A stretch of 64,000 nucleotides of DNA from assembly GCA_016178135.1 (NCBI GenBank), contig JACOTW010000003.1, positions 472-64,471 on the forward strand, given 5' to 3'. The stretch comes from Candidatus Saccharimonadota bacterium. GTDB taxonomy: Bacteria > Patescibacteriota > Saccharimonadia > Saccharimonadales > JACOTW01. Each line of letters begins with the position of its first letter. Position 1 is the stretch's first letter. The notes under the pieces are model-generated. The model was given only the letters and a program-made list of their open reading frames with translations. It searched no databases and was not told the origin of the DNA. Position numbers and translations under genes: made by a program. Shown piece by piece: positions 4,474-61,185 of this stretch.

Positions 4474-4486
4474 ACACTAATACTCT

Positions 4487-4646
4487 ACTGGACTTACGCA
4501 AAGCTCCCTCATCCCCAGACCAACTAACCTCGGCTACAAACAGTTTTTCCTCTCTCGATGTACCTTCAGGTACCTCTCCTTCAGATAAAACTGTTTTCGC
4601 TCGAGCTGATTCGCCCTGGGAACGGGGGATTTTGCATAAGTCCAGT
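4487..4646. repeat. MITE-like palindromic repeat, canonical copy (orientation B)
   Basis: ctggacttacgcaaagctccc..ccccagaccaac...ctctcgatgtaccttcaggtacctctccttcag...gctcgagctga..cctgggaacggg..ttttgcataagtccagt; terminal inverted repeats and central hairpin. Confidence 0.9.
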
Positions 4647-4735
4647 TTAGAATCATATAAACTGGATCAGATTCGACACACTATTCATAATACATATTAC
4701 GCAAGACACTCTAGGCAAGCGCTCGAGGTACAATC

Positions 4736-5991: not shown

Positions 5992-6206
5992 GGCAAAAAT
6001 GCCGCAGCTGCCGTCAGTTCTTGATGACTTCACAGTCAAAGCGCACAATGCTCGGAGAACTCACCATTTCTTTTATTACTTTAAGATGAGAAATAGCTTA
6101 ACAACTCCTCGCATCTAATTGTGCTTTTGACATTCAGGCTTCAGGAACTTACGGATGCTGGGGGAGGCCATGGAATGCGCTCCTGCTGAGCGCGCATTAG
6201 TAATTA

Positions 6207-6365
6207 ACTCGACTTACGCAAAACTCCTCCATCCCCAGATCGAATTCTATCGGCTGCAAACAGTTTTTCTGTCCTCGATGTAGCCACAGCTACCTCTCCG
6301 CCAGATAAAACTGTTTTCGCTCGAGATAATTCACTCTGAGAACGGACGATTTTGCGTAAGTCGAG
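6207..6365. repeat. MITE-like palindromic repeat (orientation B, 'ctcgac/gatcgaattctatcggctgcaaacag' subfamily)
   Basis: actcgacttacgcaaaactcctccatccccagatcgaa...gatgtagccacagctacctc...ctgagaacggacgattttgcgtaagtcgagt. Confidence 0.9.
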
Positions 6366-6372
6366 TTAATAC

Positions 6373-7218: not shown

Positions 7219-7231
7219 ATGAGCTTAGTAT

Positions 7232-7391
7232 ACTGGACCTGTCGCAAAATCGCCCGTTCCCAGGCTAAATCAGCTCGAGCTGGGAGTAGTTTGACCGAAG
7301 GAGAGGTAGCCATAGCTACATCGAGAGAAGACAGACCACTATCAGTCGATACCAGTTGGTCTGGGGATGGGGGAGCTTTGCATAAGTCCAG
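7232..7391. repeat. MITE-like palindromic repeat (orientation A), abutting the start of the 6373-7218 gene
   Basis: actggacctgtcgcaaaatcgcccgttcccaggc...ctgaaggagaggtagccatagctacatcgagagaag...ctggggatgggggagctttgcataagtccag. Confidence 0.9.
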
Positions 7392-7434
7392 CTGACATTG
7401 CGGGATAACTTGTGGGCTTTTTTGGGATTTTTTG

Positions 7435-8065: not shown

Positions 8066-8069
8066 ATAT

Positions 8070-12941: not shown

Positions 12942-12950
12942 TGATACTGT

Positions 12951-13111
12951 ACTGGACCTGTCGCAAAATCGCCCGTTCCCAGGGCAAATCAGCTCTAGTT
13001 TATAGTGGTTTGACTGAAGGAGAGGTAGCTTTAGCTACATCGAGAGAAGACAGACCGCTACCAGCCGAGATTAATTGGTCTGGGGATGGGGGAGCTTTGG
13101 GTAAGTCCAGT
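12951..13111. repeat. MITE-like palindromic repeat (orientation A)
   Basis: actggacctgtcgcaaaatcgcccgttcccagggcaaatcagctc...gtagctttagctac...ctggggatgggggagctttgggtaagtccagt. Confidence 0.9.
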
Positions 13112-13187
13112 GTAAGCTTAACAATTTTCGCTTCAAGCAGAATTACTCTGGAATTGGCGACAAAGTGTGAAGATAAAAGGGGGTAGC

Positions 13188-13851: not shown

Positions 13852-13858
13852 TTTTGTT

Positions 13859-14015
13859 CGACTTACCCAAAGCTCCCCCATCCCCAGACCAACTAATCTC
13901 AAGCGGTAGCGGTCTGCCTTCTCTCGATGTAGCTATGGCTACCTCTCCTTCAGTCAAACCACTATCAGCTCGAGCTGATTTGCCTTGGGAGCGGATGATT
14001 TTGTGTTAGTCCAGT
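13859..14015. repeat. MITE-like palindromic repeat (orientation B; inverted relative to 12951-13111)
   Basis: cgacttacccaaagctcccccatccccagaccaactaatctc...gatgtagctatggctacctc...ccttgggagcggatgattttgtgttagtccagt. Confidence 0.9.
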
Positions 14016-15229
14016 TTAGTGTCTAGAAATACAGAATTTGCTAGATTATCAGCACATTGAGGACAACTTTCTTCCTCGTCATCTTCCGATAGCCAACGCT
14101 TAGTGGCGATAAGCCAGGGTTGAAAGTCATGATAAGCGATGAGATCAGCCAACCGCCGTAAAATCCAGCCAATTTTTCCATAAAGTCTAATATTTCCCCA
14201 GAGAACAGCGGCCCAATACTTGCCTACCGGAGTTATATAAATAGGTTTTTTGGCCACATAAGGCAGGGGTAATTTTTTGTCGGCTAGTCGTATTAAATTG
14301 TTGGTAACTGTTACGGCATCGTGCAGGGCGGTTTGTGCCATACCGGAATATGGAGTGTCGGCGCTATCACCTATCACATAGATACCTGGCTCGGCTTGCA
14401 AATATTGGTCAACACGAACCTTTTTATTGCTCGCTAGCTGAAACTGATTTTCGGTAAAGAATGGATTGTTGGCTACGCCAGCGGTCCAAATGACCGTGTG
14501 GCTACGGATGGGTTTACTATTGATTATTAACGAATCTATGGTTTGGGCTTGAGCAGGTGTTTTGAGGTATAGTTTGATGCCGAGTTTGCGGAGTCGCCGC
14601 GTAACCTTGGCAGACAAATCCTTTGGCAGGTTTGGCAATAGTCTTGGCGCGGCCTCGACAAGGTCAATATGAAATTCTCGAGGCTTCAGGCCATGCCTTA
14701 TGCATATTTGCTTTAAATAGGCTGGTAAAGCGCCGGCTAGTTCTACACCAGTTGGTCCGCCGCCAATAATTACGTAACTAAGATCTGGTCGGTGGTCATC
14801 GAACAATTGTTTGTGTAGATGATTTTTTATCTCCTCTGCCTCCTCTAACGATTTCATACTATAGGATAGTTCGCTAAGTCCATTGATTCCGAAATAATTT
14901 GTTACCAATCCGATGCTTAAAATCAAAGCATCATATGAAAAGATTTGTCCGTTTTTTGTTTTCAGGCTATGGATTTTTCGGTCAATCAATACGACTTTAT
15001 CGCGAACAATAGTGATGCGTTTTTCATTGAATACTTCCGCAAGCGGAATACTAGAAATTTTGCGCTTACCACCAGTAGCTGTGCGATAAAGAGCTGGATG
15101 GAAGTCAAAACTATCGCTATCGCTGATTAGGGTTATGTGAAAGCGACCATCTTCCGCAAGGCGCAGAGCGGATTTTACTCCGCCAAAACCTCCCCCAACT
15201 ATTACTATTTGATGTTTTTTACTGTTCAT
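14006..15229 (-). CDS. ndh: Type II NADH:quinone oxidoreductase (NDH-2); the longer ORF-track extension to 15469 reads through an upstream repeat
   Basis: MNSKKHQIVIVGGGFGG first dinucleotide-binding motif at the proposed start, second GGGPTGVE motif, NDH-2 length ~407 aa. Confidence 0.75.
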   Translation of the reverse strand: MNSKKHQIVIVGGGFGGVKSALRLAEDGRFHITLISDSDSFDFHPALYRTATGGKRKISSIPLAEVFNEKRITIVRDKVVLIDRKIHSLKTKNGQIFSYDALILSIGLVTNYFGINGLSELSYSMKSLEEAEEIKNHLHKQLFDDHRPDLSYVIIGGGPTGVELAGALPAYLKQICIRHGLKPREFHIDLVEAAPRLLPNLPKDLSAKVTRRLRKLGIKLYLKTPAQAQTIDSLIINSKPIRSHTVIWTAGVANNPFFTENQFQLASNKKVRVDQYLQAEPGIYVIGDSADTPYSGMAQTALHDAVTVTNNLIRLADKKLPLPYVAKKPIYITPVGKYWAAVLWGNIRLYGKIGWILRRLADLIAYHDFQPWLIATKRWLSEDDEEESCPQCADNLANSVFLDTKLD

Positions 15230-17904: not shown

Positions 17905-18816
17905 CTAGGGCAACCATTTATCAAGCGAAATCAAGATAGAAAACAATACATTGACTATTAAGGATAGGTTAAACATACGACGAGCCCAGGCGATATTATC
18001 AGTAGCCTTGAATCCAGCCAGCGCAAAACGTAGCCAAAAAGTACTTACTAGGGTCATAATTATTAGATAAGTATAGCCAGCGTAGCCGAATATCGTTAAT
18101 CCACTTGAAGCTACGAAAAATGCCAGAATATAATAAAATATTTGTTTTTTGGCCTCTAAAATACCATTTTTTACGGTTAAGATTGGCAATTTGGCTGCGA
18201 CATAATCCTCTCTGCGGTAGATACCAATAGAGTAAAAGTGCGGCATTTGCCAGCAAACTAAAATGACGAACAGTAAAAAAGCCCCCCCGTCGAAGCGGTT
18301 AGTAACGGCTACGTATCCGGCGACTAAAGGTGCAGCGCCTGCCAGGCTGCCTATAACTGTACTGTGTATGGAGCGTCGCTTACTAATACCATAAGCAATC
18401 AAATATACTACAACCCCAAAAATACCCATGACGACGGTTCGCCAATTAGTAAATGAAGCCAAAATAATAAACCCCGATAAGCCCAAAAAGGTAGCAAATA
18501 TTAGAGCATTAACCGCGGGAATTGCGCCTGTTACTAGTGGTCGTTTTTTTGTTCTGGACATTTTTTTGTCTACGTCGCGATCTATGTAATTGTTAAAGAC
18601 GCAGCTTGACGCTATAACCAACGCAGTACCGGACAGGACTGCGGCCAGTAGCCCCCAATTAACATTGCCGCGAGCGGCTAGTAAAAAGCCGGCCGTGGCG
18701 GTAATTAGGTTGCCCCGAACAATACCTGGTTTGGTTAATTCATAATAGGACTTAAAATCCATTTTCTTAATGACGGTATATTCCTTCCTCTTTTTGTATA
18801 AATTTTTCAGTTTCAT
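17905..18816 (-). CDS. ctaB: Protoheme IX farnesyltransferase (heme O synthase, UbiA family)
   Basis: NNYIDRDVDKKMSRTKKRPLVTG prenyltransferase motif; position downstream of cyoABCD. Confidence 0.85.
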   Translation of the reverse strand: MKLKNLYKKRKEYTVIKKMDFKSYYELTKPGIVRGNLITATAGFLLAARGNVNWGLLAAVLSGTALVIASSCVFNNYIDRDVDKKMSRTKKRPLVTGAIPAVNALIFATFLGLSGFIILASFTNWRTVVMGIFGVVVYLIAYGISKRRSIHSTVIGSLAGAAPLVAGYVAVTNRFDGGAFLLFVILVCWQMPHFYSIGIYRREDYVAAKLPILTVKNGILEAKKQIFYYILAFFVASSGLTIFGYAGYTYLIIMTLVSTFWLRFALAGFKATDNIAWARRMFNLSLIVNVLFSILISLDKWLP

Positions 18817-19129
18817 CCGGGGACATTTGTCTATAATTTAGGTTATTCATAATCCACAACGAACCAAATACTAGGACGATAACAACTAGCCCGGCGAATA
18901 AAAAGGCCATCAAATTCCAGCGTGGCTTGGATTCTTGACCAAGATTCAGGAAGAATATTAATTGTACGAATAATTGAATGATTGCTAGGAAGATTATAGC
19001 TGCCTTAATAACTCCATGGGTGCCAAAAGTGTGTGCCGATAGGACGTGGTGATTAACCAGCCAATAGGCCAATGAAGTTAGAACGATAGAAGCTATATAT
19101 CCGATTAAACTCGACTTACCCAAAATCAT
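18767..19129 (-). CDS. cyoD: Quinol oxidase subunit IV (CyoD/QoxD-like); proposed ATG lies inside a MITE copy, longer ORF to 19297 is MITE read-through
   Basis: ~110-aa 3-TM protein following cyoC; ATGATTTTGGGTAAGTCGAG start is the MITE terminus. Confidence 0.6.
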   Translation of the reverse strand: MILGKSSLIGYIASIVLTSLAYWLVNHHVLSAHTFGTHGVIKAAIIFLAIIQLFVQLIFFLNLGQESKPRWNLMAFLFAGLVVIVLVFGSLWIMNNLNYRQMSPDETEKFIQKEEGIYRH

Positions 19130-19263
19130 CCGCTCCCAGAGTGAATTATCTCGAGCGAAAACTGTTTTGTCTGAAGGAGAGGTAGCCCTAGTTGCATCGA
19201 CAGAAGAAAAACTGTTTGCAGCCGATAGAATTCGATCTGGGGATGAAGGAGTTTTGGGTAAGT
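19110..19263. repeat. MITE-like palindromic repeat (orientation A) overlapping the 5' end of cyoD
   Basis: actcgacttacccaaaatcatccgctcccagagtgaattatctcgagcgaaaactgtttt...gtagccctagttgc...gatctggggatgaaggagttttgggtaagtt. Confidence 0.85.
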
Positions 19264-19298
19264 TGATTTTGTAGGGCTTGGATGAACGGCTAGACATA

Positions 19299-19868
19299 CT
19301 AGAGAACTCCCATTAGATAAACCATTGTAAATATAAAAATCCAGACAATATCCAAAAAGTGCCAGAACATACTAAAGGCAGTTAAGCGTCTGTTGGTTGA
19401 TGATATTATGCCGCGTTGATAAATTTGTGCCATCAAAACAGTGGCCCAAATCAAGCCGATTGTAATGTGTAAGCCGTGTGTTCCTACCAGAGTAAAGAAG
19501 GCCGACAAAAAGCCACTACGCTGCCAGCCATATCCTTCGCTAATAAGTTTTGAAAATTCACTTATTTCTAACCCCAAAAAGGTTAAACCGAGTAAAGAGG
19601 TAGTCATCAGCCAAAGGAGTACTCTAGCACTATTACCACGTCGCGCCGCCAATATCATGAGGCTACTAGTGAAACTGCTGGTTAATAAGATTATTGTCTC
19701 GCTCAATACAAACGGCAATTTGAAAATATCATTTCCAGACGGCCCACCGTAAGTGTTATTTCTAAGGACTGCAAAAGTAGCGAACAGGCTGGCGAACAAC
19801 ACACAGTCAGTCATTAAGTAAATCCAAAATCCAAAAGTTGATCTATCATCTGACTTGTGCTGAATCAT
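19299..19868 (-). CDS. cyoC: Cytochrome bo3-type quinol oxidase subunit III
   Basis: 5-TM heme-copper oxidase subunit III pattern ([21 protein letters not shown]...). Confidence 0.85.
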
Positions 19869-21895
19869 GCGTGTTCCTTACTTTCGTTTATCATGATCTC
19901 AGCGACTGTTATGGTTAGCTCTGTATCGTCATCAGACAGGCGCTGGATCAGGCATATCAACCCGCCAATAAAGCCAACAGCCGCCAACCACCAGATATGC
20001 CAAATAATACTAAAACCAGCCACCAGACTAAAACCAGCCACAAACAAACCCGCACCGGTATTTTTAGGCAATTTAATATCTTTATATTGTGGTTTTTGAT
20101 CGTTGTCGGCAGTTTTTTTCATCGCCCAAAAGGCATCGCGTTCATTAACTTTGGGTATAACGGCAAAATTGTAGAATGGTGGTGGTGAAGTAGTTGACCA
20201 TTCCAGGGTACGACCATCCCACGGGTCGCCTGTTTTATCAAATTCACGTTTTCCAACCAGAGAATCCAGTTTGATTAAAATTGTTCGTCCAACTGAACGT
20301 AACAGTGGTTTATTCCAGGTGGTTTGCAAATCAAAGACACTGACAATAATTTGCAATATTTGCAGCCCTACGCCAATTATTATACACAGCCCGCCAATGG
20401 CCGACACGATAAATAAAGATTGCCAACCTAACGTTGCGTCATAATGATCAAGGCGCCTGGTGGCTCCCATTAAACCAAGAACGTAGAGTGGCATAAAGGC
20501 TAGTAGGAAGCCAATAATCCAAAACCAAAAAGCTAATCGTCCAACGCGTTCATTTAGAATAATTCCAGTAAACTTTGGAAACCAATAAGCCAGACCAGCA
20601 AAAAAACCAAACAAAACACCGCCGATAATCATATTATGAAAATGAGCTACCAGAAATAGACTATTATGAACCTGGAAATCAATGGCTGGCACGGACATCA
20701 AGACGCCAGTTGCGCCACCAATAGTAAAAGTCATCACGAAGCCTAAAAACCATAACATAGGCGTAGTAAATCGAATCCGACCACGGAACATAGTAAACAA
20801 CCAGTTAAATATCTTGACGCCAGTTGGAATGGCTATAATCATTGTCATAATGCCAAAGAACGCATTGACATCAGCTCCGGCACCCATGGTAAAGAAATGG
20901 TGAACCCAGACAATAAACGACAAAAAAGTAATCCCGCCTAGTGCTCCGACCATTGACTTATAACCAAATAATCTTTTACTGGAAAAAGTAGCCACAACCT
21001 CTGAAAATATACCAAACGCTGGCAAGACCAGAATATAAACTTCCGGATGTCCCCAGGCCCATATCAAATTAATATACATCATGGCATTACCGCCCCCGCC
21101 AGACGTGAAAAAATGCATGCCCAATAAGCGATCTAGTGATAGCATGGCAAGCGTGGCTGTTAAGATTGGAAAAGCAAATAGGACCAGCATCATACTGCCT
21201 AGGACGCTCCATATAAAGATGGGCATTTTCATTAGTGTCATGCCTGGCGCGCGTAGTTTGATGATCGTGACTAAGAAATTAATGCCAGACATCAAGCTAC
21301 CTATACCGGCAATTTGCAGGCTCCATATCCAATAATCCACACCTACACCTGGACTGAAGTCTATACCAGATAAAGGTGGGTAGGCCAGCCAGCCAGCGGC
21401 TGAAAATTCACCAACAACTAACGAAGAGTTTATTAGTAATATACCAGCAATGTATAACCAAAAACTAAGTGAATTGAGGAATGGAAAAGCTACATCACGA
21501 GAGCCAATTTGCAAGGGTACGATCAGGTTAAGTAGCCCAAACATAAAACCCATGGCAACAAAGAAGATCATTATTGTTCCGTGTGCCGAGAAAACTTGCT
21601 GAAAAGTATCAGTACTAATTATGCCATGCGATCCGCCCACCGATGTTGCTTGCTGAATTCGCATCATGGCCGCGTCAGCCGCACCACGGAGTAGCATGAG
21701 TGTAGCGGCAATGATATACATTACACCAATACGTTTCGGATCTAGTGATGTTAGCCATTCTCTCCAAAGCCATTTCCACTTTTTGAAATATGTTAGTAGT
21801 ACAATAATGGCCAAAATTGATAATAAGCCGCCGATTATACCGCCAGTTGTGATTGGATCATGTTTGAAGGCCTCTAAAGTTAATCTTCCAAACAT
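19865..21895 (-). CDS. cyoB: Cytochrome bo3-type quinol oxidase subunit I (heme-copper oxidase catalytic subunit)
   Basis: [30 protein letters not shown] and His ligand motifs of HCO subunit I. Confidence 0.95.
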
Positions 21896-21898
21896 TGC

Positions 21899-22792
21899 CT
21901 ACATACTCCCGTCATTTGATGAGTTTAATTTATGGGTATGTGGTCCAAATTTGTTTATAACTGATTGATATAGGTTGTCATTAAGTAACGAATATGACGT
22001 AACTGGGTTGTTTAGACTTGGTGTGGCCAAGTGGGCGTAGGCATTCATGTCTAAACGCTGCCTTGTTTGTTGGCTATCCGCTACCCACCTTTCAAAATCA
22101 TCCAATGAAGATGCTTGAGCGGTAAAATTCATGCTGGCGTGACCCATACCGCTTAAATTTGCTGAAACGCCTCGAAAAGTACCGATTTGAGTAGCCAAAA
22201 GATGCAATCTTGTTGACATCCCACTCATTGCGTATATTTGCCCACCTAATTCTGGAATCCAAAAAGAATTCATCGGAGCATCGGCAGTTAGTTCAAAATT
22301 TAGTGGTGTGTCTACCGGAAATCGGACTTGGTTGATAGTTGCTATGCCCTGTTCAGGATAAATAAATAGCCATTTCCACTGCAGGGCAACAACCTGAATA
22401 GTTAAAGGTTTTTTGTTAACCGATATGGCTCGCATTGGATCCAGGTCATGGGAGCTACGCCACGTTACAACTGATAGGATCAAAATAACAATCAGCGGAA
22501 TGCCCCACCAAGCCACCTCCAGATACCTGTTATTATCCCACTCCGGAGAATATTTGGCATTTTTGTTAGAAGCCCTGTAATGCCATGTAATGCCTATGGT
22601 GAGCAAGAAAACTGGCGCAATCACGAACAAGCTTAACAGAACAGCAAACATTATTAATTGGCGTTGTTCAAATGCGATAAAGCCTTTTGGGGATAGCACA
22701 GATATATTGTTGCCACCAAGCATAAAAACGCCACCAATGATAACGGTCATGGCTAATAATATAAAAACGGGCAGTTTATGACCCTGGCGCAT
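21899..22792 (-). CDS. cyoA: Cytochrome bo3-type quinol oxidase subunit II
   Basis: N-terminal 2-TM + cupredoxin-like domain, operon position upstream of cyoB. Confidence 0.85.
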   Translation of the reverse strand: MRQGHKLPVFILLAMTVIIGGVFMLGGNNISVLSPKGFIAFEQRQLIMFAVLLSLFVIAPVFLLTIGITWHYRASNKNAKYSPEWDNNRYLEVAWWGIPLIVILILSVVTWRSSHDLDPMRAISVNKKPLTIQVVALQWKWLFIYPEQGIATINQVRFPVDTPLNFELTADAPMNSFWIPELGGQIYAMSGMSTRLHLLATQIGTFRGVSANLSGMGHASMNFTAQASSLDDFERWVADSQQTRQRLDMNAYAHLATPSLNNPVTSYSLLNDNLYQSVINKFGPHTHKLNSSNDGSM

Positions 22793-22894
22793 CCCTCACC
22801 CCAATCTATGGTTATTCCTACACAAGCTTATATGATTGATAACGAGTTGGCAATCAGCAGGTTCGGGGTTTAAAGCACAGGGATTGGTCGGCGA

Positions 22895-24346
22895 ATGGAT
22901 TTTATTCGTGTAAGTCCGGTAAACTATCAATACATGAAAGTTACGATCGTTACATGCTACAAAGATCCTGATTATGTACGGGCTCGTACTTTGCGTGCGG
23001 GCTTGGCTGCCAATGCGGGAGTTGAGATGACTATCGTAAAAAACAAACATAAAAATATCTTGCGCTATCCAGAGACTATTATCCGACTAGTCATTGACCG
23101 CATTAACAATAGACCAGATGCTTATATCTTGACGTTTCGCGGTTACGAAATATTGCCTTTTTTACAGCTAATCGCTTGGTCAAAACCAATTATATTTGAT
23201 GAATTTATCAATCCGTTGGAATGGTTGGCGGAGCCACGGCACGAAAAATGGGTAGGGCTGATTCCTAAAAAGGCCCTGAAGAAGTTTTACGTCGCTTTGC
23301 TTGGGCGTTGTCGTTTTATCCTGGCTGATACTCAAGCGCACGCCGATTACAGCGTCAAATTAAGCGGTCAGCAAACAAATGTACTGGACTCACCCAAAAC
23401 CCCTCGTTCCCAGGGCGAATCAGCTCGAGCGAAAACAGTTTTATCTGAAGGAGAGGTAGCCTTAGCTACATCGAGAGAAGAAAAACCGTTTGTAGCCGAT
23501 AGAATTCGATCTGGGGATGAGGGAGTTTTCGACAGGTCCAGTAAATACTGGGCAATACCTGTCGGTACTGACGAGACGGTTTTTGATTATAAACTGGACT
23601 TACGCAAAATCGCCCGTTCCCAGGGCAAATCAGTTCGAGTTGGAAGTGGTTTTACCGAAGGAGAGGTAGCCATATCTACATTGAAAGAAGGCAGACCACT
23701 ACCAGCCGAGATTAGTTGGTCTGGGGATGGGGGAGTTTTGCGTAAGTCCAGTAAAGTTCGGGTTTTAGAAAAATACTTCCAAGTATTTTATTACGGCAAC
23801 ATGTTACCCCTTCATGGACTGGAATATGTTTTGGAAGCGGCTGTTTTATTGAAAAATAATCAAAACATAAAGTTTTTGATCGTTGGGGGCAACAGTAGAA
23901 CAGTTAAAATGATAAAAAACGCGCAACAACAAGGAGCAAAAATTAAGTATCAGAACTGGATTCCATTTGAAGAATTACCAAAAGTTATTGCCACTTCTAG
24001 TTTATGTTTAGGCGGGCCATTTGGTAAAACAAATCAAGCACAAAAAGTAATTACAGGTAAAACTTACCAGTTTTTAGCCAGCGGTGCGGCTACGTTGATT
24101 GGCAATACAGAAGCCAGTGCTTTGTTTATTGATAAGAAAAATAGCTTAGTTGTGCCGCTAGCCGATCCGCTAGCTCTAGCTACGACCATTGATTGGGCTT
24201 ATCAGCACCGGCAACAACTTCCGGCAATTGGTCAAGCCGGCAACAGGCTTTATCAGGAAAACTTTTCGGTGCGTATTATTACTGGCGAATTGTCAGCTAT
24301 TTTGACCAAACTTGCTTCTGGCATGAGTAATAATCGCCATCACTAA
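22895..24346 (+). CDS. GT-B glycosyltransferase (GT4-like) whose inter-domain region carries two in-frame MITE insertions
   Basis: C-terminal GT1/GT4-type domain (…FLASGAATLIGNTEAS…VPLADP…); ORF stays open across 23383-23752. Confidence 0.55.
   Translation: MDFIRVSPVNYQYMKVTIVTCYKDPDYVRARTLRAGLAANAGVEMTIVKNKHKNILRYPETIIRLVIDRINNRPDAYILTFRGYEILPFLQLIAWSKPIIFDEFINPLEWLAEPRHEKWVGLIPKKALKKFYVALLGRCRFILADTQAHADYSVKLSGQQTNVLDSPKTPRSQGESARAKTVLSEGEVALATSREEKPFVADRIRSGDEGVFDRSSKYWAIPVGTDETVFDYKLDLRKIARSQGKSVRVGSGFTEGEVAISTLKEGRPLPAEISWSGDGGVLRKSSKVRVLEKYFQVFYYGNMLPLHGLEYVLEAAVLLKNNQNIKFLIVGGNSRTVKMIKNAQQQGAKIKYQNWIPFEELPKVIATSSLCLGGPFGKTNQAQKVITGKTYQFLASGAATLIGNTEASALFIDKKNSLVVPLADPLALATTIDWAYQHRQQLPAIGQAGNRLYQENFSVRIITGELSAILTKLASGMSNNRHH
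23383..23542. repeat. MITE-like repeat (orientation A) inserted in-frame in the glycosyltransferase ORF
   Basis: actggactcacccaaaacccctcgttcccagggcgaatcagctcgagcgaaaacagtttt...gtagccttagctac...ctggggatgagggagttttcgacaggtccagt. Confidence 0.9.
23593..23752. repeat. MITE-like repeat (orientation A), second tandem in-frame copy in the same ORF
   Basis: actggacttacgcaaaatcgcccgttcccagggcaaatcagttcgag...gtagccatatctac...ctggggatgggggagttttgcgtaagtccagt. Confidence 0.9.
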
Positions 24347-25486
24347 CAGTAGTCCTAGTAATATTAAGTAGATTCCGCGGTCGAGTATATTGGCGGCGAC
24401 TATGGTGTCGCTGTTGATGTGGTGCGAGCGTTGCGAGAAAAATAAAAATGATTCGCGAAACCCTAGAGCTCCTGGGGTTAACGAAACGAACAAAGCAAAG
24501 TTAGCAGCTCCTGTATATGTCAAAACTTGGGAAAAAGAAACCGACACATTAGTAGCACGAATCTCAAAAAAATAGATAGTTGCCACAAGACTTATTTGTA
24601 ATAGTGTGAAAAGTGCTAATTTACTTGCCAGAATACCTTTTTTAGAAATTGTCATTGTTTTACTCGACCCACCCAAAACCTCCCCACCCCCAGATGGAAT
24701 TCTGTCGGTTGCGAACAGTTTTTCTTCTCTAGATGTAGCTAAGGCTACCTCTCTTTCAGACAAAACAGTTTTCGCTCGAACTGATTCACTCTGGGAATGG
24801 ACGATTTTGTGTGAGTCGAGGTTGTTTTTCTTAAAATAAAACAAAACTCCAAAGATGCCTGCCCCAAATATTAACAAAAATAGTACACTGTGCCATGAAG
24901 ATTGACTACCAAAAAATAGAAATGAGGCACTAATAAAGGCAAAAAAAGCGTAATAAAGTAAAGTTGCTCCAGAGTAGGCTTTTAGACTAACGCCATGTTG
25001 TTTTTTTAAATAAACCGCCCGAAACCCGGGCCCGCTCTGTAGTGGTCCAAAAAAATTGACTATCGATGAGTAAATAGTCAGCAACGAGTTTTCTTTTAGA
25101 GACAACTTAACTCCACAAAGCCTAAGAATCGTATCGTAGACAAGAATTAGCGATGCAATTGTTAATACATACAAACCGAGTATTAATATCAGGGTACCTA
25201 CGTTTATTTGTCGTAATTGATCAATAACGCCTGAATGAGTTTTGAGATAGTAAAAAAAAGTTCCCAAAGTTAGAGCTAGGACACTAATACCAAGAAAACG
25301 TTTTAACCATCCTATACTCGACTTACTCAAAATCCCTCCATCCCCAGATCGAGTTCTATCGGCTGCAAACAGTTTTTTCTTTCTAGATGTACCTTCAGGT
25401 ACCTCCCCTTCAGATGAGACAGTTTTCGCTCGAGCTAATTCACTCTGGGAACGGACGATTTTGCGTAAGTTGAGTATAACCACCAA
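24293..25486 (-). CDS. Polytopic membrane protein (lysyl-PG-synthase-TM/flippase-like, UPF0104-type) with two in-frame MITE insertions; start uncertain
   Basis: Multiple TM helices, ...SLTPGALGFRE... motif; ORF continuous through repeats 24662-24820 and 25316-25475. Confidence 0.4.
   Translation of the reverse strand: MVVILNLRKIVRSQSELARAKTVSSEGEVPEGTSRKKKLFAADRTRSGDGGILSKSSIGWLKRFLGISVLALTLGTFFYYLKTHSGVIDQLRQINVGTLILILGLYVLTIASLILVYDTILRLCGVKLSLKENSLLTIYSSIVNFFGPLQSGPGFRAVYLKKQHGVSLKAYSGATLLYYAFFAFISASFLFFGSQSSWHSVLFLLIFGAGIFGVLFYFKKNNLDSHKIVHSQSESVRAKTVLSEREVALATSREEKLFATDRIPSGGGEVLGGSSKTMTISKKGILASKLALFTLLQISLVATIYFFEIRATNVSVSFSQVLTYTGAANFALFVSLTPGALGFRESFLFFSQRSHHINSDTIVAANILDRGIYLILLGLLLVMAIITHARSKFGQNS
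24662..24820. repeat. MITE-like repeat (orientation B) in-frame inside membrane-protein ORF
   Basis: actcgacccacccaaaacctccccacccccagatggaattctgtcggttgcgaacag...gatgtagctaaggctacctc...ctgggaatggacgattttgtgtgagtcgag. Confidence 0.85.
25316..25475. repeat. MITE-like repeat (orientation B) at the 5' end of the 24293-25486 ORF
   Basis: actcgacttactcaaaatccctccatccccagatcgagttctatcggctgcaaacag...gatgtaccttcaggtacctc...ctgggaacggacgattttgcgtaagttgagt. Confidence 0.9.
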
Positions 25487-25537
25487 CCTACATTAACATA
25501 ATTTACATGCTCCAGTGTGTTAGTGTGATTTAATAAG

Positions 25538-27367
25538 ATGATGTTGAAGCAGCAGGAGAAAAAACGTGAAATTATTGATGTTGTCGCACGACTGTTGAGC
25601 TCGCGAAAATTTTTCTATATAACGATTGTTTTTTTTGTTTTTCAGGCAGCCTGGATAGCTTTGTCCGGACTTTATCCTATGGCTTTTGATGAGAATACTC
25701 ATCTTGGAATTATCAGGATATATGCTAATCATCTTTCACCTTTTTGGTCGAGACAGCCGGAAGGTACTGTTGTGTTAGGGGCTATTACTCGCGATCCCTC
25801 GTATTTTTACCATTACATTATGAGTTTTCCGTATAGGCTGATTGATGATGTTTTTCGCACGGAAATGTCCCAAGTGTTGGTACTTAGATTTATTAGTATA
25901 GTCTTTTTTGTTTGTGGCCTATTGCTTTATCGTCGGGTTCTCAAATACAGCAAAGCATCAGATCTAACTGTCAATGTCGTAATGGCGCTTTTGGTATTAA
26001 CGCCGGTTGTGCCATTTTTGGCTGCTCAAATCAATTACGACAATTTGATATTTGCACTTTGCGGACTGATTATCTTGCTAACATTGCAAATATCGGAAAG
26101 ACTTAACTGGACTTACGCGAAATCGCTCGTTCCTGGGGATAATCAGCTCGAGCGAGAACAGTCTCATCTGAAAGAGAAGCGCGTAAAGGTGCATCGAAAG
26201 AGAGAAAACTGTTTGCAGCCGAGGTTAGTCGGTCTGGGGATGAGGGAGCTTGCGACAGATCCAGTTGAACAGGGTCAAATTGACGCCAAACGAATCCTAT
26301 TGGTAATTATAGTTGGCTTGTTTGCCAGTATTGTGAAATATGCGTTTTTGCCAATTTTTATTGCAGTTTTAGTATGGTTAAGTTTTGATTTGAAGAAATA
26401 TGGTGGTGGTGCGATATTTAGACTGTTTGTGAATTCTTTTCGGAAGATTGTATGGCCAGTCAAAACCATACTTGTCATATTATTGATTATTGGAGCCGGA
26501 TTATTTACGGAACGCTACGGCATAAATACGCTACGCTACCATACGCCCACACCGGAATGCGACCAAGTTCTAAGTATTGAACAGTGCTTAGAATACGGAC
26601 CGTGGAGACGAAATTATCTCACCCATCAAGACAAAATCAACGGAAAACTTACTGTCAATAATGCTAGTGACCCTATTTCTTATACACTCAAAACATGGGC
26701 TGAAACAATGGTTTATAAATTGTTTTTTGTGAGTAATGGGCCGGCGAGTCAGTTTTGGATTGGTAATCCACTACCTGTACCGCTTGCTTTAGCCACGGGG
26801 TTTGGGATTGTTGGGGTTCTCTTGGCTTTGTGCTGGCAGAGAGAGTTACGCAAAAAATATAAACTGGGTCTTTTTGGTTTATTGACGGGTGTTTATGTAA
26901 TGGTTTTATGGGGTCAGAATTACATGGATTTTTTGCATATTGGTTATCCGTTTGCTATACAAGGACGATATTTGCTACCTATTTTGCCATTCGTATATCT
27001 TATATTAGTTCTAGCTATGAAGGCTCAACGACACACGAGTTTCGCACTTAGCCATTGCCCCAGATCACACCTGAACGGCTACAAACTTCCATCCCTCACT
27101 CAGCATAACTACAGTTATGCCTCCCTCGGATTAAAAGTTTTCGCTTGTTCAGTTGCAACCTGGCATCAACGGCTAAGTGCGAAACTCGTGCGACAGCTAA
27201 AAATAGGATTGGCGGTTACGATTTTGTTTATTTTGTTTATTCAGGGCGGTGGTCTGGTAACTTATATTGTTCGGAGTGACCAAACATGGTATTGGCCCAA
27301 TCAAACGATCGTGAATATCAATGATACCGCCCGCAAAATTCTTAAAACGTTTATTATTGGTTCTTGA
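25538..27367 (+). CDS. Large polytopic membrane protein, possible GT-C-fold glycosyltransferase (Pmt/ArnT-like); carries in-frame repeat insertions
   Basis: >12 predicted TM helices; first-loop AFDENTH (DE-type motif); adjacency to GT2 Ppm-like gene. Confidence 0.35.
   Translation: MMLKQQEKKREIIDVVARLLSSRKFFYITIVFFVFQAAWIALSGLYPMAFDENTHLGIIRIYANHLSPFWSRQPEGTVVLGAITRDPSYFYHYIMSFPYRLIDDVFRTEMSQVLVLRFISIVFFVCGLLLYRRVLKYSKASDLTVNVVMALLVLTPVVPFLAAQINYDNLIFALCGLIILLTLQISERLNWTYAKSLVPGDNQLEREQSHLKEKRVKVHRKRENCLQPRLVGLGMRELATDPVEQGQIDAKRILLVIIVGLFASIVKYAFLPIFIAVLVWLSFDLKKYGGGAIFRLFVNSFRKIVWPVKTILVILLIIGAGLFTERYGINTLRYHTPTPECDQVLSIEQCLEYGPWRRNYLTHQDKINGKLTVNNASDPISYTLKTWAETMVYKLFFVSNGPASQFWIGNPLPVPLALATGFGIVGVLLALCWQRELRKKYKLGLFGLLTGVYVMVLWGQNYMDFLHIGYPFAIQGRYLLPILPFVYLILVLAMKAQRHTSFALSHCPRSHLNGYKLPSLTQHNYSYASLGLKVFACSVATWHQRLSAKLVRQLKIGLAVTILFILFIQGGGLVTYIVRSDQTWYWPNQTIVNINDTARKILKTFIIGS
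26105..26265. repeat. MITE-like repeat (orientation A, diverged) in-frame inside membrane-protein ORF (read in a third frame)
   Basis: actggacttacgcgaaatcgctcgttcctggggataatcagctcgagcgagaacagtctc...ggtctggggatgagggagcttgcgacagatccagt. Confidence 0.85.
27034..27190. repeat. Variant palindromic element with 24-bp perfect terminal IR (cacgagtttcgcacttagccattg / caatggctaagtgcgaaactcgtg) and MITE-like core; in-frame in the same ORF
   Basis: IR read directly; core ggctacaaac...aaaagttttcgct resembles MITE interior; the right arm recurs inside the mosaic copy at 45301-45452. Confidence 0.7.
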
Positions 27368-28298
27368 GGTATGATCGTTTGGCGAGTTCCAATTGGTCTT
27401 CGGCAAGAATTCGGTTGGTTCTGGTGAGATCTGCCAAGACTCCTAGTACAAATGCCAAAAAAGCCCCAATCAATAATATGGCACCAAGAACTAATGATTG
27501 CAGATGGCTACCTGGTCGACTATCAATCATAAACCATACGTAACGAATGAATGGAATAAGTCCCAGGGCTAACAGTGTGCCACCTAGACTAAGGAACACT
27601 GCATACGGCCTATACATTGTGTAGGCTCGAATGATTGCCATCGCGGACTGAAAGACGTGCTCCCGCGTAGACTTAAACAGACGTGATTCGCGAGTTTTCG
27701 GATTGGTCGTAATAGGTATGGAGGTGATTGCCAGCTGTTTATTGCCGGCTTGAATTATGGTCTCCATGCAGTAGCTGAATCTTGTTATGGTGTTGAGTTT
27801 TATAATTGCTTCGCGTGAATATGCTCTAAAGCCGCTGGCAGCATCGGGTATGTCAGTTCCGGCAGCAATGTTGACGATTCGACTCCCCAGTTTTTGTAAG
27901 ATTTTTTTAAAAGGCGAAAAATGTGCAATGCGATCTGTTTGGCGATTTGCTACGACGATATCTGCTCGTCCTTCGATAATTGGTTGTATAAGGTTTCCGA
28001 TTTCGCCACTTGGGTATTGGTTGTCCCCATCGGTGTTAACCACGATATCTGCGCCCATTTCCAAGGCTTTTAGAACGCCATCGTGAAATGATTGTCCAAG
28101 TCCCATATTGCGCGTGTGCCGTACAAAGTGGTTGATGCCTAGTTGCCGAGCAACCTTGATGGTGTCATCAGTTGAGCCGTCATCAATAATCAATATTTCA
28201 ATTGTATCAATTCCTGCGATTTTTTTAGGTATGTCGTGCAGAACAAGCGACAGTGTTTTTGCCTCATTAAGACAGGGAATTTGAATAACTAATTTCAT
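27354..28298 (-). CDS. GT2 glycosyltransferase, polyprenol-phosphate mannose/glucose synthase-like (DPM1/Ppm1-type) with C-terminal TM helices
   Basis: IPCLNEAKTL...IIDDGSTDDT...VNTDGDNQYP motifs (DxD, GT-A fold). Confidence 0.75.
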   Translation of the reverse strand: MKLVIQIPCLNEAKTLSLVLHDIPKKIAGIDTIEILIIDDGSTDDTIKVARQLGINHFVRHTRNMGLGQSFHDGVLKALEMGADIVVNTDGDNQYPSGEIGNLIQPIIEGRADIVVANRQTDRIAHFSPFKKILQKLGSRIVNIAAGTDIPDAASGFRAYSREAIIKLNTITRFSYCMETIIQAGNKQLAITSIPITTNPKTRESRLFKSTREHVFQSAMAIIRAYTMYRPYAVFLSLGGTLLALGLIPFIRYVWFMIDSRPGSHLQSLVLGAILLIGAFLAFVLGVLADLTRTNRILAEDQLELAKRSYLKNQ

Positions 28299-28336
28299 TT
28301 ATAACTTTCTTTGGAGTGATGTACTCGATCTGGTTT

Positions 28337-28410
28337 GGCTTCGGGACTAGGATTCGAACCTAGATTGCTGGGACCAGAACCCAGTGTCCTACCGTTAGAC
28401 GATCCCGAAT
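28337..28410 (-). tRNA. tRNA-Gln (anticodon CUG), CCA encoded
   Basis: Reverse complement folds as cloverleaf: acceptor ttcggga/tcccgaa, D gtct/ggac, anticodon stem ctggg/cccag with loop ttCTGgt, T-arm ctagg-ttcgaat-cctag, discriminator G, CCA. Confidence 0.85.
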
Positions 28411-28413
28411 GAT

Positions 28414-28624
28414 TCATTCGACCTAAAAACTCCTCCATACCTAGACCGAATCCCATCGGTTATACCGGACTGACGAAAAACTCCCCCATCCCCAGACCAA
28501 CTAATCTCGGCTGATAGCGGTCTGTCTTCTCTCGATGTAGCTAAGGCTACCTCTCCTTCAGTCAAACCACTCCCAACTCGAGCTGATTTGCCCTGGGAAC
28601 GGGCGATTTTGCGACAGGTCCAGT
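28414..28624. repeat. Partial MITE fragment (28414-28469) followed by full MITE-like copy (orientation B, 28470-28624)
   Basis: …aaaaactcccccatccccagaccaactaatctcggctgatagcggtctg…gatgtagctaaggctacctc…cctgggaacgggcgattttgcgacaggtccagt. Confidence 0.9.
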
Positions 28625-28686
28625 ATAAACAATTTATCTTACATGGAAACTATTATTCCCCATTGTCGAAGATTTTAACAGATTAG

Positions 28687-29865
28687 CTAAAACAAGTCTA
28701 AGCCGTTTATTTCTGGGGGTAAAAAACCTTCGGGGTGTTTGAAGCCGGCTTTCCATTTAGTACCTTTGCCATAGCCCAGATCTTTCATGAGTTGGGTAGG
28801 TGCGTTGCGGAGATGAATTGGTACAGGAAGGTTGGGGTAATTTTTGGCGGTCTCTATGGCTTTATACATGGCGTTAGCTACGGCTCGTGACTTTTCACAT
28901 TTAGCAAGTACGGTAGCGCAGTGAAACAGATTGAATTGACATTCCGGCAAGCCAGTGCGTTCGACTGCCAAAAAAGTTGAAACAGCCAGATTCAAGGCTG
29001 CCGGTGCGGCAATACCGATGTCTTCGCTGGCGAAAATTACCATGCGTCTAGCGATAAATTTTGGATCTTCACCAGCTTGTATCATTCGTGCCATGTAGTA
29101 AAGGGCGGCATTAGGGTCATTGCCACGCAATGATTTTATAAAGGCACTGATTATGTTGTAGTGATTTTCTCCTTGCTTGTCATAGTCTGGAGCGCGCTTC
29201 TGAGCGGCCATAACTACTACTTCTGGTGTAATTGTGCCGTTGGTTAAACTTAATGCTAGCTCCAGATTGCCTAGGGCAATGCGGGCATCGCCACCCGATA
29301 GCTCGGCTATTAGATCAATACTGCGAATGGGTAAGCGTTTGGCAGTGATTTTTTCTGTCTTGGTGGCTTGTTTGATGATTTTAATAATTTCGGTTTTATC
29401 CAGAGGGTTTAATACTAGTACGCGCGAGCGACTAAGTAATGGTGCGATAACCTCGAAGCTGGGATTTTCAGTTGTTGCACCGATTAGTATTATGGTACCA
29501 GTTTCTACATGGGGTAAAAAGGCATCTTGTTGGGTTTTGTTGAAGCGATGAATCTCATCTACGAATAAAATAGTGCGTATACCCAGCCGCTGATTTTGTT
29601 GAGCACGATCAATAACCTTTGTTATGTCAGCTTTGCCGGAGGTTACGGCACTAAGTTCGGTGAATTCGACATCCAGCTCATTGGCCAGTATGCGAGCCAG
29701 GGTGGTTTTGCCAGAGCCAGGCGGTCCCCAGAGAATCAGGCTTGCGGGCTTATTTTTGGTAATAATTTCATGAACTATAGCCCCAGGAGCCAATAAGTGC
29801 TCCTGGCCGACCATCTGCTTTAATTTATCCGGCCGCATTCGTTCGGCCAACGGTCTTCTGTCCAC
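28687..29865 (-). CDS. rarA: Replication-associated recombination protein A (AAA+ ATPase RarA/MgsA)
   Basis: Walker A GPPGSGKTT, Walker B ILFVDEIHRFNK, sensor/arginine-finger region, C-terminal MgsA helical domain. Confidence 0.9.
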   Translation of the reverse strand: MDRRPLAERMRPDKLKQMVGQEHLLAPGAIVHEIITKNKPASLILWGPPGSGKTTLARILANELDVEFTELSAVTSGKADITKVIDRAQQNQRLGIRTILFVDEIHRFNKTQQDAFLPHVETGTIILIGATTENPSFEVIAPLLSRSRVLVLNPLDKTEIIKIIKQATKTEKITAKRLPIRSIDLIAELSGGDARIALGNLELALSLTNGTITPEVVVMAAQKRAPDYDKQGENHYNIISAFIKSLRGNDPNAALYYMARMIQAGEDPKFIARRMVIFASEDIGIAAPAALNLAVSTFLAVERTGLPECQFNLFHCATVLAKCEKSRAVANAMYKAIETAKNYPNLPVPIHLRNAPTQLMKDLGYGKGTKWKAGFKHPEGFLPPEINGLDLF

Positions 29866-29908
29866 CCTAACAGTATACCGGTTTTACTTAATACAACTAA
29901 AGTCCTGT

Positions 29909-30121
29909 CTACTCACCACCTTTTTGGACATAACCCTTCACAAACTCTTCAGCATTTTCTTCTAGTACTTCATCAATCTCATCCAGTAAACCGTCAAGTT
30001 CTTCTTTAATACCGGCACCCTTTGTGGCTGTTTCACCAACGCTATGCACTTGGTCTTCATTGGTTTCCTCTTCTCTACGGCGCTCTGGTGTTGGTACTCG
30101 TTTTTGTATACGTTCTGCCAT
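29909..30121 (-). CDS. pup: Prokaryotic ubiquitin-like protein Pup homolog (70 aa) ending in GGE
   Basis: C-terminal LLDEIDEVLEENAEEFVKGYVQKGGE aligns almost residue-for-residue with mycobacterial Pup (LLDEIDDVLEENAEDFVRAYVQKGGQ); strong RBS GGGAGG. Confidence 0.8.
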   Translation of the reverse strand: MAERIQKRVPTPERRREEETNEDQVHSVGETATKGAGIKEELDGLLDEIDEVLEENAEEFVKGYVQKGGE

Positions 30122-30248
30122 AGTTTGAGCCTCCCTTATGTTTATGAATCCAAAACCAGTATAACACCAGTTTCACACTTTTTCATTTGCCCGCGATTGG
30201 CAACGCGCATGTATAATACATAATATATATAAAAAAAAGGGGGGACAT

Positions 30249-30881
30249 GTGGCTGACCTAAAAGTAACCAAAACAGGAGTTAATTCAAAAATGATACAAA
30301 TTGGTAGCAAGAAATTGATGCTGGCATCACTAGTATTAATCTTGACTATAGCGATTGGTGGTGGTGCCTACTGGTGGCGTGATAAACAGGCCAAAGACGA
30401 TCGAGCTAAAAATGATAATGAAATTGTACAATTGCGACAAAAAGTGGCCAACCTAGAAAAACAACTAATTGATTCTAAGGCTAAATTGGCTACGGAGAAG
30501 CCAGTCGTTACAAATACAGCCCTTAATCAGGCCATGATAGACAATGTCAAAGCCGTTTTTGCTACCGGTAACACGCAGCCACTGGAGGGTTACATGACCG
30601 CCAAAGTAACGGTTATTATTGCTGCTTCAGAGGGTTTGGGTGAGCGTACTGCAGCGCAAGCGACCGCCGACATCACGTCCTATGTAGGTGGTGCCACTGA
30701 TGCTTGGAATTTTTCATTGCCGACAGCTACTATTAACGCCTACAAGAGTGGTGATTACGGCCAGTATTTTCCAGATGGTGCGTTGGTAGGTAAGTCAAAC
30801 AACATGGTTATTTCGTTTACGTTTAACGATGTGGGTAAAATTAGTACGGTTTTTATGACTAATAGTGCGCAACTTCTTTAA
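30249..30881 (+). CDS. Hypothetical membrane-anchored protein (single N-terminal TM, coiled-coil, extracytoplasmic domain); likelier start ATG 30291
   Basis: Hydrophobic LMLASLVLILTIAIGGGAYWW segment; RBS caggag before 30291. Confidence 0.4.
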   Translation: MADLKVTKTGVNSKMIQIGSKKLMLASLVLILTIAIGGGAYWWRDKQAKDDRAKNDNEIVQLRQKVANLEKQLIDSKAKLATEKPVVTNTALNQAMIDNVKAVFATGNTQPLEGYMTAKVTVIIAASEGLGERTAAQATADITSYVGGATDAWNFSLPTATINAYKSGDYGQYFPDGALVGKSNNMVISFTFNDVGKISTVFMTNSAQLL

Positions 30882-32251: not shown

Positions 32252-32266
32252 AGTACAATATTGTAG

Positions 32267-60882: not shown

Positions 60883-60942
60883 TGTGACAGACATAAAATC
60901 CAAACTCTAAAAGGTATCTTGGTAGACACTTATTATATAGGC

Positions 60943-61102
60943 TGGACCTGTCGCAAAACTCCTCCATCCCCAGATCGAATTATATCGGCTGCAAACAGTT
61001 TTTCTTCTCTCAATGTAGCTACGGCTACCTCTCCGCCAGATAAAACTGTTTTCGCTCGAGATAATTCACTCTGGGAACGGACGATTTTGCGACAGGTCCA
61101 GT
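60943..61102. repeat. MITE-like palindromic repeat (orientation B)
   Basis: ctggacctgtcgcaaaactcctccatccccagatcgaattatatcggctgcaaacag…caatgtagctacggctacctc…ctgggaacggacgattttgcgacaggtccagt. Confidence 0.9.
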
Positions 61103-61185
61103 AGACATATCAGATCGAATTATATATCGGGTATACTTACGGAATTTCGGAAGTCCTGTACAGCTCTGTTATACTAGGAGAACGT

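Follow-up and report, generated by a model that had tools for sequence, protein, structure and literature searches.

How can genes for conserved enzymes and membrane proteins carry copies of a mobile palindrome and still read through from start to stop? This question is raised by 64,000 nucleotides (nt) of a Candidatus Saccharimonadota bacterium (assembly GCA_016178135.1, contig JACOTW010000003.1, positions 472 to 64,471; this whole stretch is hereafter the window), in which three consecutive open reading frames (ORFs), 22895-24346(+), 24293-25486(-) and 25538-27367(+), each hold two inserted palindromic elements, are uninterrupted and are annotated, each as a single protein, by NCBI and other sources. 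Genomes of Saccharibacteria and of the candidate phyla radiation (CPR) are commonly portrayed as streamlined, with little mobile DNA. The reading favoured here, to which we assign a probability of roughly 0.85, is that a non-autonomous palindromic miniature inverted-repeat transposable element (MITE) has proliferated in this Candidatus Saccharibacteria genome, and that the copies now found in frame within genes are those that survived a selective filter. A preliminary description of the same DNA had likened these insertions to the Rickettsia palindromic elements (RPEs), and the likeness has been borne out: seven copies lie in genes whose orthologues lack them, and the residues of the host proteins are conserved.

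Central to this reading is the comparison of the host proteins with their relatives, which the preliminary description had proposed as a check. A script run over the three orthologue alignments (A1, A2 and A3, with dozens of orthologues) recovered query-only segments of ~51-54 amino acids (aa) at the element sites, and the syntenic loci of distant Saccharibacteria (L001-L004) hold no copy. Homologues, of which there are hundreds, measure ~355, ~290 and ~500 aa for the three genes in turn. The GT4-family glycosyltransferase (GT) is 483 aa long here, as against ~350-365 aa for its homologues in a 74-sequence alignment and in the orthologue alignment, and its two query-only segments span aa 161-214 and aa 231-288. 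Insertion 1 comes after the residues '…YSVKLSGQQTN', and insertion 2 after '…PVGTDETVFDY', in the linker before the C-terminal Rossmann domain; taking out 54 aa at each site gives a protein of orthologue length, in which KLSGQQTN(K)YWAIPVGTDE lines up with RLTGVEKAKFKSVPVSTDE of P0002. The two copies had been described as tandem. Two copies there are, but 48 nt of conserved host codons (…YWAIPVGTDETVFDY…) separate them and they belong to different subfamilies, so that they are two independent insertions and no tandem pair. In the AlphaFold model of this protein (mean predicted local distance difference test score, pLDDT, 83.2), both Rossmann domains exceed 90 and the short conserved strand between the inserts reaches ~91, while the inserts themselves lie at 35-64 (insertion 1 at 35-47).

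The flippase-like membrane protein on the opposite strand (ORF2) has 397 aa against ~290 aa in its orthologues, and the polytopic DUF2142-like protein (ORF3) 609 aa against ~500 aa. In both, the orthologue alignments agree with what had been claimed, namely two copies in ORF2, and one canonical copy plus a variant element at 27034 in ORF3. One ORF2 copy sits in a Lys-rich loop between the hydrophobic segments 196-220 and 284-304; the other directly follows codon 4, so that the protein reads MVVI, then 54 aa, then GWLKRF…, where the orthologues begin M-x-x and continue with the conserved N-terminus. For GT and ORF2 alike, removal of an element together with one of its flanks restores host sequence of orthologue length. 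The canonical copy of ORF3 lies between the hydrophobic segments 167-189 and 247-286, and the variant, which constitutes a family of its own (family 3, 27034-27190), is 157 nt long with 24-nt terminal inverted repeats and CGACA/CGACA flanks, so that it too adds 157 + 5 = 162 nt; its hairpin is predicted at -72.3 kcal/mol (z = -10.1). The AlphaFold model of ORF3 (mean pLDDT 89.3) has a host fold above 90 and dips solely at 190-245 and 498-551, where the low confidence may in part be due to a lack of homologues in the alignment columns concerned. The host folds of GT and ORF3 are thus modelled above 90 and the inserts as low-confidence loops (pLDDT 35-73 over the two proteins). The peptides added by the insertions are hydrophilic (grand average of hydropathy -0.18 to -1.00; isoelectric point, pI, 5.3-10.6) and stand between hydrophobic segments. 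Moreover, at no invariant column of the family alignments (74 and 70 sequences) do the window proteins deviate.

It had been stated that four consecutive genes carry insertions. This holds for three of them; the fourth neighbour, a GT2 gene at 27354-28298, is free of inserts. A further host gene, cyoD, lies four genes away from the three, and its N-terminal region contains a copy in antisense. Its ORF runs open through the copy to an ATG at 19297, 1 nt past the cyoC stop and preceded, 9 nt upstream, by GGGAG; it is the 176-aa product that the source annotation lists, and homology to the 109-aa CyoD of E. coli begins at residue 61. The preliminary description had the gene take its start codon from the end of the copy, and an ATG at 19129 within the terminal repeat could indeed serve; given that the ORF stays open to ATG 19297, an in-frame insertion is no less likely than initiation at the internal ATG. 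The positions of host genes and element copies are collected in Table 1.

Table 1. Host genes and copies of the palindromic elements in the window (core limits, where given, in brackets)
Feature	Position	Strand	Particulars
GT4-family glycosyltransferase	22895..24346	+	483 aa; Pfam Glyco_trans_1_4; P0001 100% identical; two insertions
GT insertion 1, family 1	23380..23545 (23384-23541, 158 nt)	+	flanks TGTA, TAAA; frame s1; aa ~163-216
GT insertion 2, family 1	23590..23755 (23594-23751, 158 nt)	+	exact TAAA/TAAA; frame s1; interdomain linker
ORF2, flippase-like / LPG_synthase_TM membrane protein	24293..25486	-	397 aa; Pfam PF03706; P0121; two insertions
ORF2 loop copy, family 1	24659..24824 (24663-24820, 158 nt)	-	frame s1
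ORF2 N-terminal copy, family 1	25313..25478 (25317-25474, 158 nt)	-	exact TATA/TATA; frame s1
ORF3, DUF2142-like polytopic membrane protein	25538..27367	+	609 aa; two insertions, two MITE families
ORF3 copy, family 1	26103..26268 (26107-26264, 158 nt)	+	flanks TTAA, TTGA; frame s2
ORF3 element, family 3	27029..27195 (27034-27190, 157 nt)	+	CGACA/CGACA; in frame, last loop
cyoD	18767..19297	-	176-aa ORF (E. coli CyoD 109 aa); family-1 copy in N-terminal region, antisense, frame a1
Copy in cyoD, family 1	19106..19271 (19110-19267, 158 nt)	+	one end degenerate
Intergenic copy, family 1	4484..4649 (158 nt)	-	between nusB and NUDIX genes
Intergenic copy, family 1	6204..6369	-	exact TTAA/TTAA duplication; stops in all six frames
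Intergenic copy, 159-nt subfamily	7229..7395	+	CCTGTCGC end; net insertion not a multiple of 3
Intergenic copy, 159-nt subfamily	12948..13114	+	exact TGTA/TGTA duplication
Copy at 3' end of NDH-2-like ORF 14006-15469(-), family 1	13853..14018 (13857-14014)	-	
Intergenic copy, 159-nt subfamily	28461..28627	-	exact TATA/TATA duplication; adjoins tRNA gene
Intergenic copy, 160 nt	60938..61105	-	
Family-2 copy, intergenic	573-729		TAAA flanks; boundaries read directly
Family-2 copy, intergenic	36271-36428		TATA flanks; boundaries read directly
Family-2 copy, intergenic	11375-~11530		
Family-2 copy, intergenic	45505-45584		

What kind of element is this? An nhmmer search of the 64-kb window with a hidden Markov model (HMM) built from four copies returned 13 full-length family-1 copies in both orientations, besides partial ones that include an internally deleted copy at 31347-31456; pairwise, the copies diverge by 20-40%. 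The core of 158 nt runs from CTSGACTTACGC… to …GCGTAAGTCSAG, and the ends defined by the alignment, CTSGACTTACGCAAAATC… and …GATTTTGCGTAAGTCSAG, are terminal inverted repeats. Nine of the 13 cores have this length; the other four measure 159 nt (three copies) or 160 nt (one copy), their extra base lying in the 'CCTGTCGC' variant of the end. In five copies the two 4-bp flanks are the same (TTAA, TGTA, TAAA, TATA and TATA), and in six more they agree at three of four positions. We read them as a 4-bp target-site duplication of a TWWA-like A/T-rich site, because the two middle bases vary between copies yet agree within a copy; a 2-bp TA duplication combined with a longer inverted repeat is the less likely alternative. 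Each canonical insertion accordingly brings a net gain of 158 + 4 = 162 nt, or 54 codons. Small size with no transposase gene, terminal inverted repeats, a target duplication and dispersed copies in both orientations all agree with what is expected of a MITE.

The element folds end to end into a hairpin. As RNA its predicted energy is -88.7 kcal/mol (z = -10.9; value for GT insertion 2), as DNA -44 kcal/mol (z = -10.0), and each copy would have a stem of ~55-60 bp in RNA. Compensatory double changes affect 11 of 44 stem pairs across copies or between subfamilies, and such covariation shows that the palindrome itself has been kept, as expected of an element that acts at the nucleic-acid level and not of a duplicated protein module. 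A difference in mean hairpin energy between intragenic (-70.6 kcal/mol, n=6) and intergenic copies (-78.6 kcal/mol, n=7) was considered as a sign of weaker hairpins within genes and set aside, six copies against seven being too few for a conclusion. An Rfam scan of the whole window returned tRNA only, the element matching no Rfam family, and Pfam places no domain on the inserted 54-aa peptide.

The family-1 consensus, flanks included, has stops in four frames; the only two without stops are a sense frame, s1, and its antisense mirror, a1, both in the same phase. The s1 peptide is KLDLRKIVRSQGESARAKTVLSEGEVA.ATSREEK…SGDGGVL.KSS and the a1 peptide LLDL.KTPPSPD…SSLDVA.ATSPSDKTVFARADS.WER.IL.KSS. 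Four insertions are read in s1, the cyoD copy in a1 and the ORF3 copy in a third frame, s2, which is stop-free in that copy only; the 159- and 160-nt copies display the s1 peptide under a shifted frame label. The earlier statement that the element is free of stops in three frames therefore applies across copies, while the consensus has two open frames and the third occurs in a single copy. For the ORF3 copy, selection after insertion was considered and judged unnecessary: a filter suffices, since existing subfamily variants already lack most s2 stops. Two copies outside genes (6208-6365 and 13857-14014) have stops in all six frames, and the latter supplies the NDH-2-like (Pyr_redox_2) ORF with its last three codons and stop (…TKLD*). 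Stop-codon depletion, which had been suggested as a test, is rejected as evidence for adaptation, since two or more open frames occur in 23% of random perfect palindromes of this composition and in 9% of random shuffles.

A simple sequence of events would account for these observations. A transposase acting in trans, encoded elsewhere than in the window, would mobilise the element, and in a genome that is ~88% coding most insertions would strike genes. An insertion with the target T at the third codon position (~1/3 of cases) would leave the host ORF open and add a hydrophilic peptide of ~54 aa, and selection would purge those insertions that shift the frame, bring in a stop or hit a structured region, so that the survivors would be found in loops, linkers and termini. 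GT4, the flippase-like protein, the DUF2142-like protein and CyoD would then be translated through the element and still be functional, with the peptide forming a largely unstructured surface loop; in the mRNA, the stem of ~55-60 bp could alter translation or be a target of RNase III.

The distribution of the copies can be set against these expectations. The non-element sequence of the window is ~88% coding, yet only seven of 14 full-length elements lie in coding sequence, as against the 88% expected if insertion were random (binomial p = 4.6e-4). All seven intragenic elements are stop-free and sit in loops, linkers or termini, and all seven keep the host ORF, against an expectation of ~1/3 for each (p about 4.6e-4). 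Further, the intragenic family-1 copies all have the 158-nt core (6/6), whereas the 159- and 160-nt copies are all intergenic (4/4). Purging of frame-shifting insertions predicts this very split, which implies that selection acts on the host genes and that they are therefore functional.

Several points weigh against this reading. The sample is one 64-kb window, and most copies have 4-bp flanks that match imperfectly. The genes of the window, and those in ~6 kb beyond it, include no transposase, and over ~37 kb no MITE is present in one of two assemblies and absent from the other. The possession of two open frames is not statistically unusual, and there is no sign of an element adapted to coding regions. 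That the hosts are translated through the element would follow solely from the integrity of the ORFs and their conservation. Lastly, the family-3 insert of ORF3 carries five of the 23 single-nucleotide polymorphisms (SNPs) that separate the window from a second assembly, GCA_040960765.1, over 18.9 kb (27054, 27093, 27103, 27146 and 27187; three of them non-synonymous), and this cluster suggests that the peptide may be a neutral or tolerated passenger rather than a functional part of the protein. Relaxed constraint, gene conversion between copies, or read mis-mapping in polishing are possible causes of the cluster.

How far does the element extend beyond this locus? More family-1 copies are present beyond the window and in a further metagenome. 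With a profile of ten s1 peptides, only 80 of 1.84 billion representative proteins were hit, most of them ORFs of <125 aa that, on our reading, were spuriously called over copies of the element. Longer proteins with an s1 match include DnaX of a Saccharibacterium (P0388), a DUF1361 protein (P0409), a lysozyme-domain protein (P0389), an S4+FtsJ (TlyA-like) methyltransferase in which the domain match goes on past the insert (P0391), a dihydrofolate reductase (DHFR) with the insert ahead of the last strand (P0397) and an epimerase that is seemingly disrupted after it (P0368). P0436, on a 2.2-kb JGI contig, is a GT orthologue of ~50% identity with a copy in the same interdomain linker, offset by ~5 residues; as closer orthologues have no copy, its sequence suggests an independent insertion at a permissive site that may have been hit recurrently. 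A structured DNA pattern matched one copy in JGI metagenomes (L007, intergenic, beside an Hsp20 gene) and none in IMG/VR. Sixteen IMG/VR hits to a 16-mer were dismissed as chance, none of them matching the element HMM, and the plasmid and phage collections gave no hits. Sparse hits across the protein, metagenome, virus, plasmid and phage searches point to a rare, lineage-restricted family. Literature searches on Saccharibacteria, Patescibacteria or CPR together with MITE found nothing, in line with the earlier remark that the phenomenon had not been described for such organisms, although these searches covered open-access texts and are not proof of absence.

Family 1 is accompanied by relatives. 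Family 2 has the ends TAGGACTTACGCACTTT…AAAGTGCGAAAGTCCTA and has the terminal GGACTTACGCA in common with family 1, and on account of this shared terminus one transposase may move both. The TAAA flank of the family-2 copy at 573 includes the stop codon of a WhiB-like ORF (14-571), a KH-domain gene has its stop directly beside the copy at 11375, and at least one family-2 copy adds 161 nt. At 8067-8407 a family-1 copy is split centrally by a palindromic element of ~165 nt (~8155-8320) with the ends GAGCTAATTAACATCTATC… and …GATAGATGTTAATTAGCTC; one MITE here lies nested within another, and the inner element is a further repeat family. A partial family-1 end lies close by, at 8021-8061. A chimeric copy at 45312-45451 combines family-1 ends with an interior that contains the right arm of family 3 (GGCTAAGTGCGAAACTCGTG). 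The 182-aa ORF that runs over this chimera (45328-45876) was considered as a further in-frame case and rejected as spurious, the glutaredoxin-like gene there starting at ~45637.

Among the other explanations, the one that survives best, though we hold it to be unlikely, is that the element has been positively adapted or co-opted, its multiple-of-three length and open frames having been selected and some of its peptides or mRNA hairpins being functional in envelope biogenesis. In the form that at least two MITE families converged on exactly 162 nt and open frames, and so became adapted to life within coding sequence in a genome nearly devoid of intergenic space, and that some of the 54-aa loops or the ~60-bp mRNA hairpins were perhaps co-opted, the idea is equally doubtful; were it true, an episymbiotic bacterium might use them to vary its surface or for control through RNase III. 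It counts in favour that two families distinct in sequence both add exactly 162 nt, that covariation in the stem indicates a maintained hairpin, that the inserts cluster in three adjacent envelope genes, and that a distant GT orthologue appears to have acquired its own insertion in the same linker. However, open frames are ordinary for a palindrome, the inserts are modelled with low confidence and their peptides spread over pI 5.3-10.6, SNPs pile up in one insert, and the family-2 addition of 161 nt departs from the multiple of three.

Could the host genes instead be dead? On this account the insertions inactivated them, and the recent pseudogenes that resulted are open merely through the multiple-of-three length of the insert and a chance lack of stops. 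Each orientation of the consensus does have one open frame, and with a gain of 162 nt about a third of insertions would stay open by chance, and the clustering of SNPs in one insert could be taken in the same sense. The retention of the ORF in seven of seven cases has, in the absence of selection, a probability of about 5e-4 only, and the 20-40% divergence between copies implies that the insertions are not very recent, yet all family-invariant residues have been kept. Outside the family-3 insert, ORF3 differs from the second assembly by three synonymous changes and one non-synonymous change; the inserts avoid structured regions, and copies of a length not divisible by three are confined to sites outside genes. 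Together, these observations make inactivation quite improbable.

Still less credible is the proposal that the element is removed or bypassed after transcription, by hairpin processing, re-initiation or, in cyoD, the internal ATG 19129, so that the mature proteins would lack the extra 54 aa. An RNA stem of ~55-60 bp in each copy and an RNase III encoded in the genome would provide substrate and enzyme, and the ATG in the terminal repeat of the cyoD copy, with GGGAG ahead of it, would yield a CyoD of normal length. RNase III would cut the mRNA, however, and not splice it, and for internal insertions no downstream start could give back the N-terminal half of the protein. Every intragenic copy is stop-free in the frame of its host, even the one read in s2, as read-through predicts, and the cyoD ORF is itself open to a well-placed upstream ATG.

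Finally, the idea that repeat copies were misjoined into genes during assembly, prompted by the fact that the genome is a metagenome-assembled genome with two indels relative to GCA_040960765.1 at a 140-nt repeat, can be dismissed: the same gene and insert sequences recur in GCA_040960765.1, in GCA_040960095.1 and in the NCBI record with HY003_02000, Logan assemblies of separate runs agree for neighbouring parts, and the copies differ mutually and have each their own duplication, and seven exact, stop-free inserts of 54 codons are not what misassembly would produce.

The comparison of assemblies gives some further detail. Three window proteins have exact matches annotated 'Candidatus Saccharibacteria bacterium' (P0001, 483 aa; P0121, 396 aa; P0241, 608 aa, locus tag HY003_02000), and P0001 is also found on a 654,487-nt contig of GCA_040960765.1. 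Over 15443-34346 the window shares 99.88% identity with that contig, in which the host ORFs are intact; upstream of 15442 the identity falls to 97.5%. Against Logan contigs of two sequencing runs, identity is 100% and 99.97%. The two indels relative to GCA_040960765.1 (181 and 116 nt) fall at the 140-nt repeat and not at a MITE. This repeat occurs at 15303-15442 and 60055-60194, the two window copies being 99% identical, and directly after each of them the window is without 181 nt or 116 nt that are present in GCA_040960765.1 (comparison coordinates L005 2368-2548; L010 12243-12358 and 21657-21800). The missing 116 nt take in the start of a hicB-like gene. Either the repeat is another mobile or recombinogenic element, or the assembly has collapsed at it.

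The surroundings fit an aerobic, soil-type Saccharibacterium with many housekeeping genes. For CPR the gene set is aerobic and actinobacteria-like, with RNase III, a complete cytochrome bo3-type oxidase operon (cyoABCD-type) together with a UbiA-family gene, Ni-SOD and a Pup homologue (window 5235-5930 and 17905-22792; L005 115-504 and 17015-17227). Positions 8001-10000 have 55% G+C as against ~43% elsewhere and hold a 538-aa ORF (8519-10135) for which Pfam gave no match. The 3' end of uvrB, comprising the part that codes for the UVR domain and the stop (59827-59923), is duplicated ~1 kb downstream at 60816-60912 with 86% identity, and the duplicate adjoins the MITE copy 60942-61101.

It is evident that a MITE superfamily fills ~4-5% of this 64-kb stretch, and that conserved enzymes and membrane proteins have been remodelled by it rather than destroyed. 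The inserts lengthen proteins and spawn dozens of spurious small ORFs in databases, and they could lead astray the annotation of CPR proteins as well as orthology calls and structure prediction; loops tolerant of 54-aa insertions are flagged by them, too.

How, then, does the element compare with known systems? The Correia elements of Neisseria (NEMIS/CREE) are palindromic MITEs of ~100-160 bp with an A/T target duplication and long hairpin transcripts that can be processed by RNase III. In size, palindromic design, A/T target duplication and hairpin the present element resembles them, and RNase III is encoded in this genome too. The Correia elements differ in their 2-bp TA duplication and 26-bp terminal repeats, and they are mostly intergenic and act on the expression of neighbouring genes; here co-variation of the flanks extends over 4 bp, and the ends have another sequence. 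In-frame fusions of MITEs with ORFs have also been recorded for ERIC, for Coxiella QMITE1 and for Anabaena MITEs (PMC10969869). The intragenic ERIC/IRU of enterobacteria and the MITEs of Anabaena PCC 7120 are likewise small mobile palindromes with open frames and an occasional in-frame fusion (Delihas 2007; Wolk et al. 2010; both cited in PMC10969869); there such cases are sporadic, whereas about half of the window copies are intragenic. In Coxiella burnetii, QMITE copies supply stops, C-terminal residues or in-frame segments (PMC5896051), and QMITE1 and QMITE2 share with our element the inverted and direct repeats, the overlap with genes and the occasional in-frame insertion, the copy 13857-14014 likewise giving its neighbour three final codons and a stop. 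The Coxiella ORFs concerned are mostly hypothetical or are affected at gene ends; here, internal insertions are found in conserved enzymes and membrane proteins with many orthologues.

The closest parallel is with the RPEs, repeats of ~150 bp of which, in three families, nearly half of the copies are inside ORFs at fold-compatible positions (PMC10969869, citing Ogata et al. 2000, 2002). Both are palindromic repeats of ~150 bp in a genome that is small and densely packed with genes, have about half of their copies in frame inside genes at sites compatible with the fold, add a conserved peptide with each such copy and have no known associated transposase. Saccharibacteria, members of the CPR, are however not Alphaproteobacteria of the order Rickettsiales, the terminal inverted repeats and 4-bp target duplication are here those of a textbook MITE, and the local density is high, with seven in-frame insertions per 64 kb. 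The element is an analogue of the RPEs and not a member of them, set apart by its host. Overall, the RPE phenomenon has been repeated in an unrelated lineage of reduced genomes, and this suggests that the colonisation of genes in frame may be a general outcome whenever palindromic elements of multiple-of-three length spread in gene-dense genomes.

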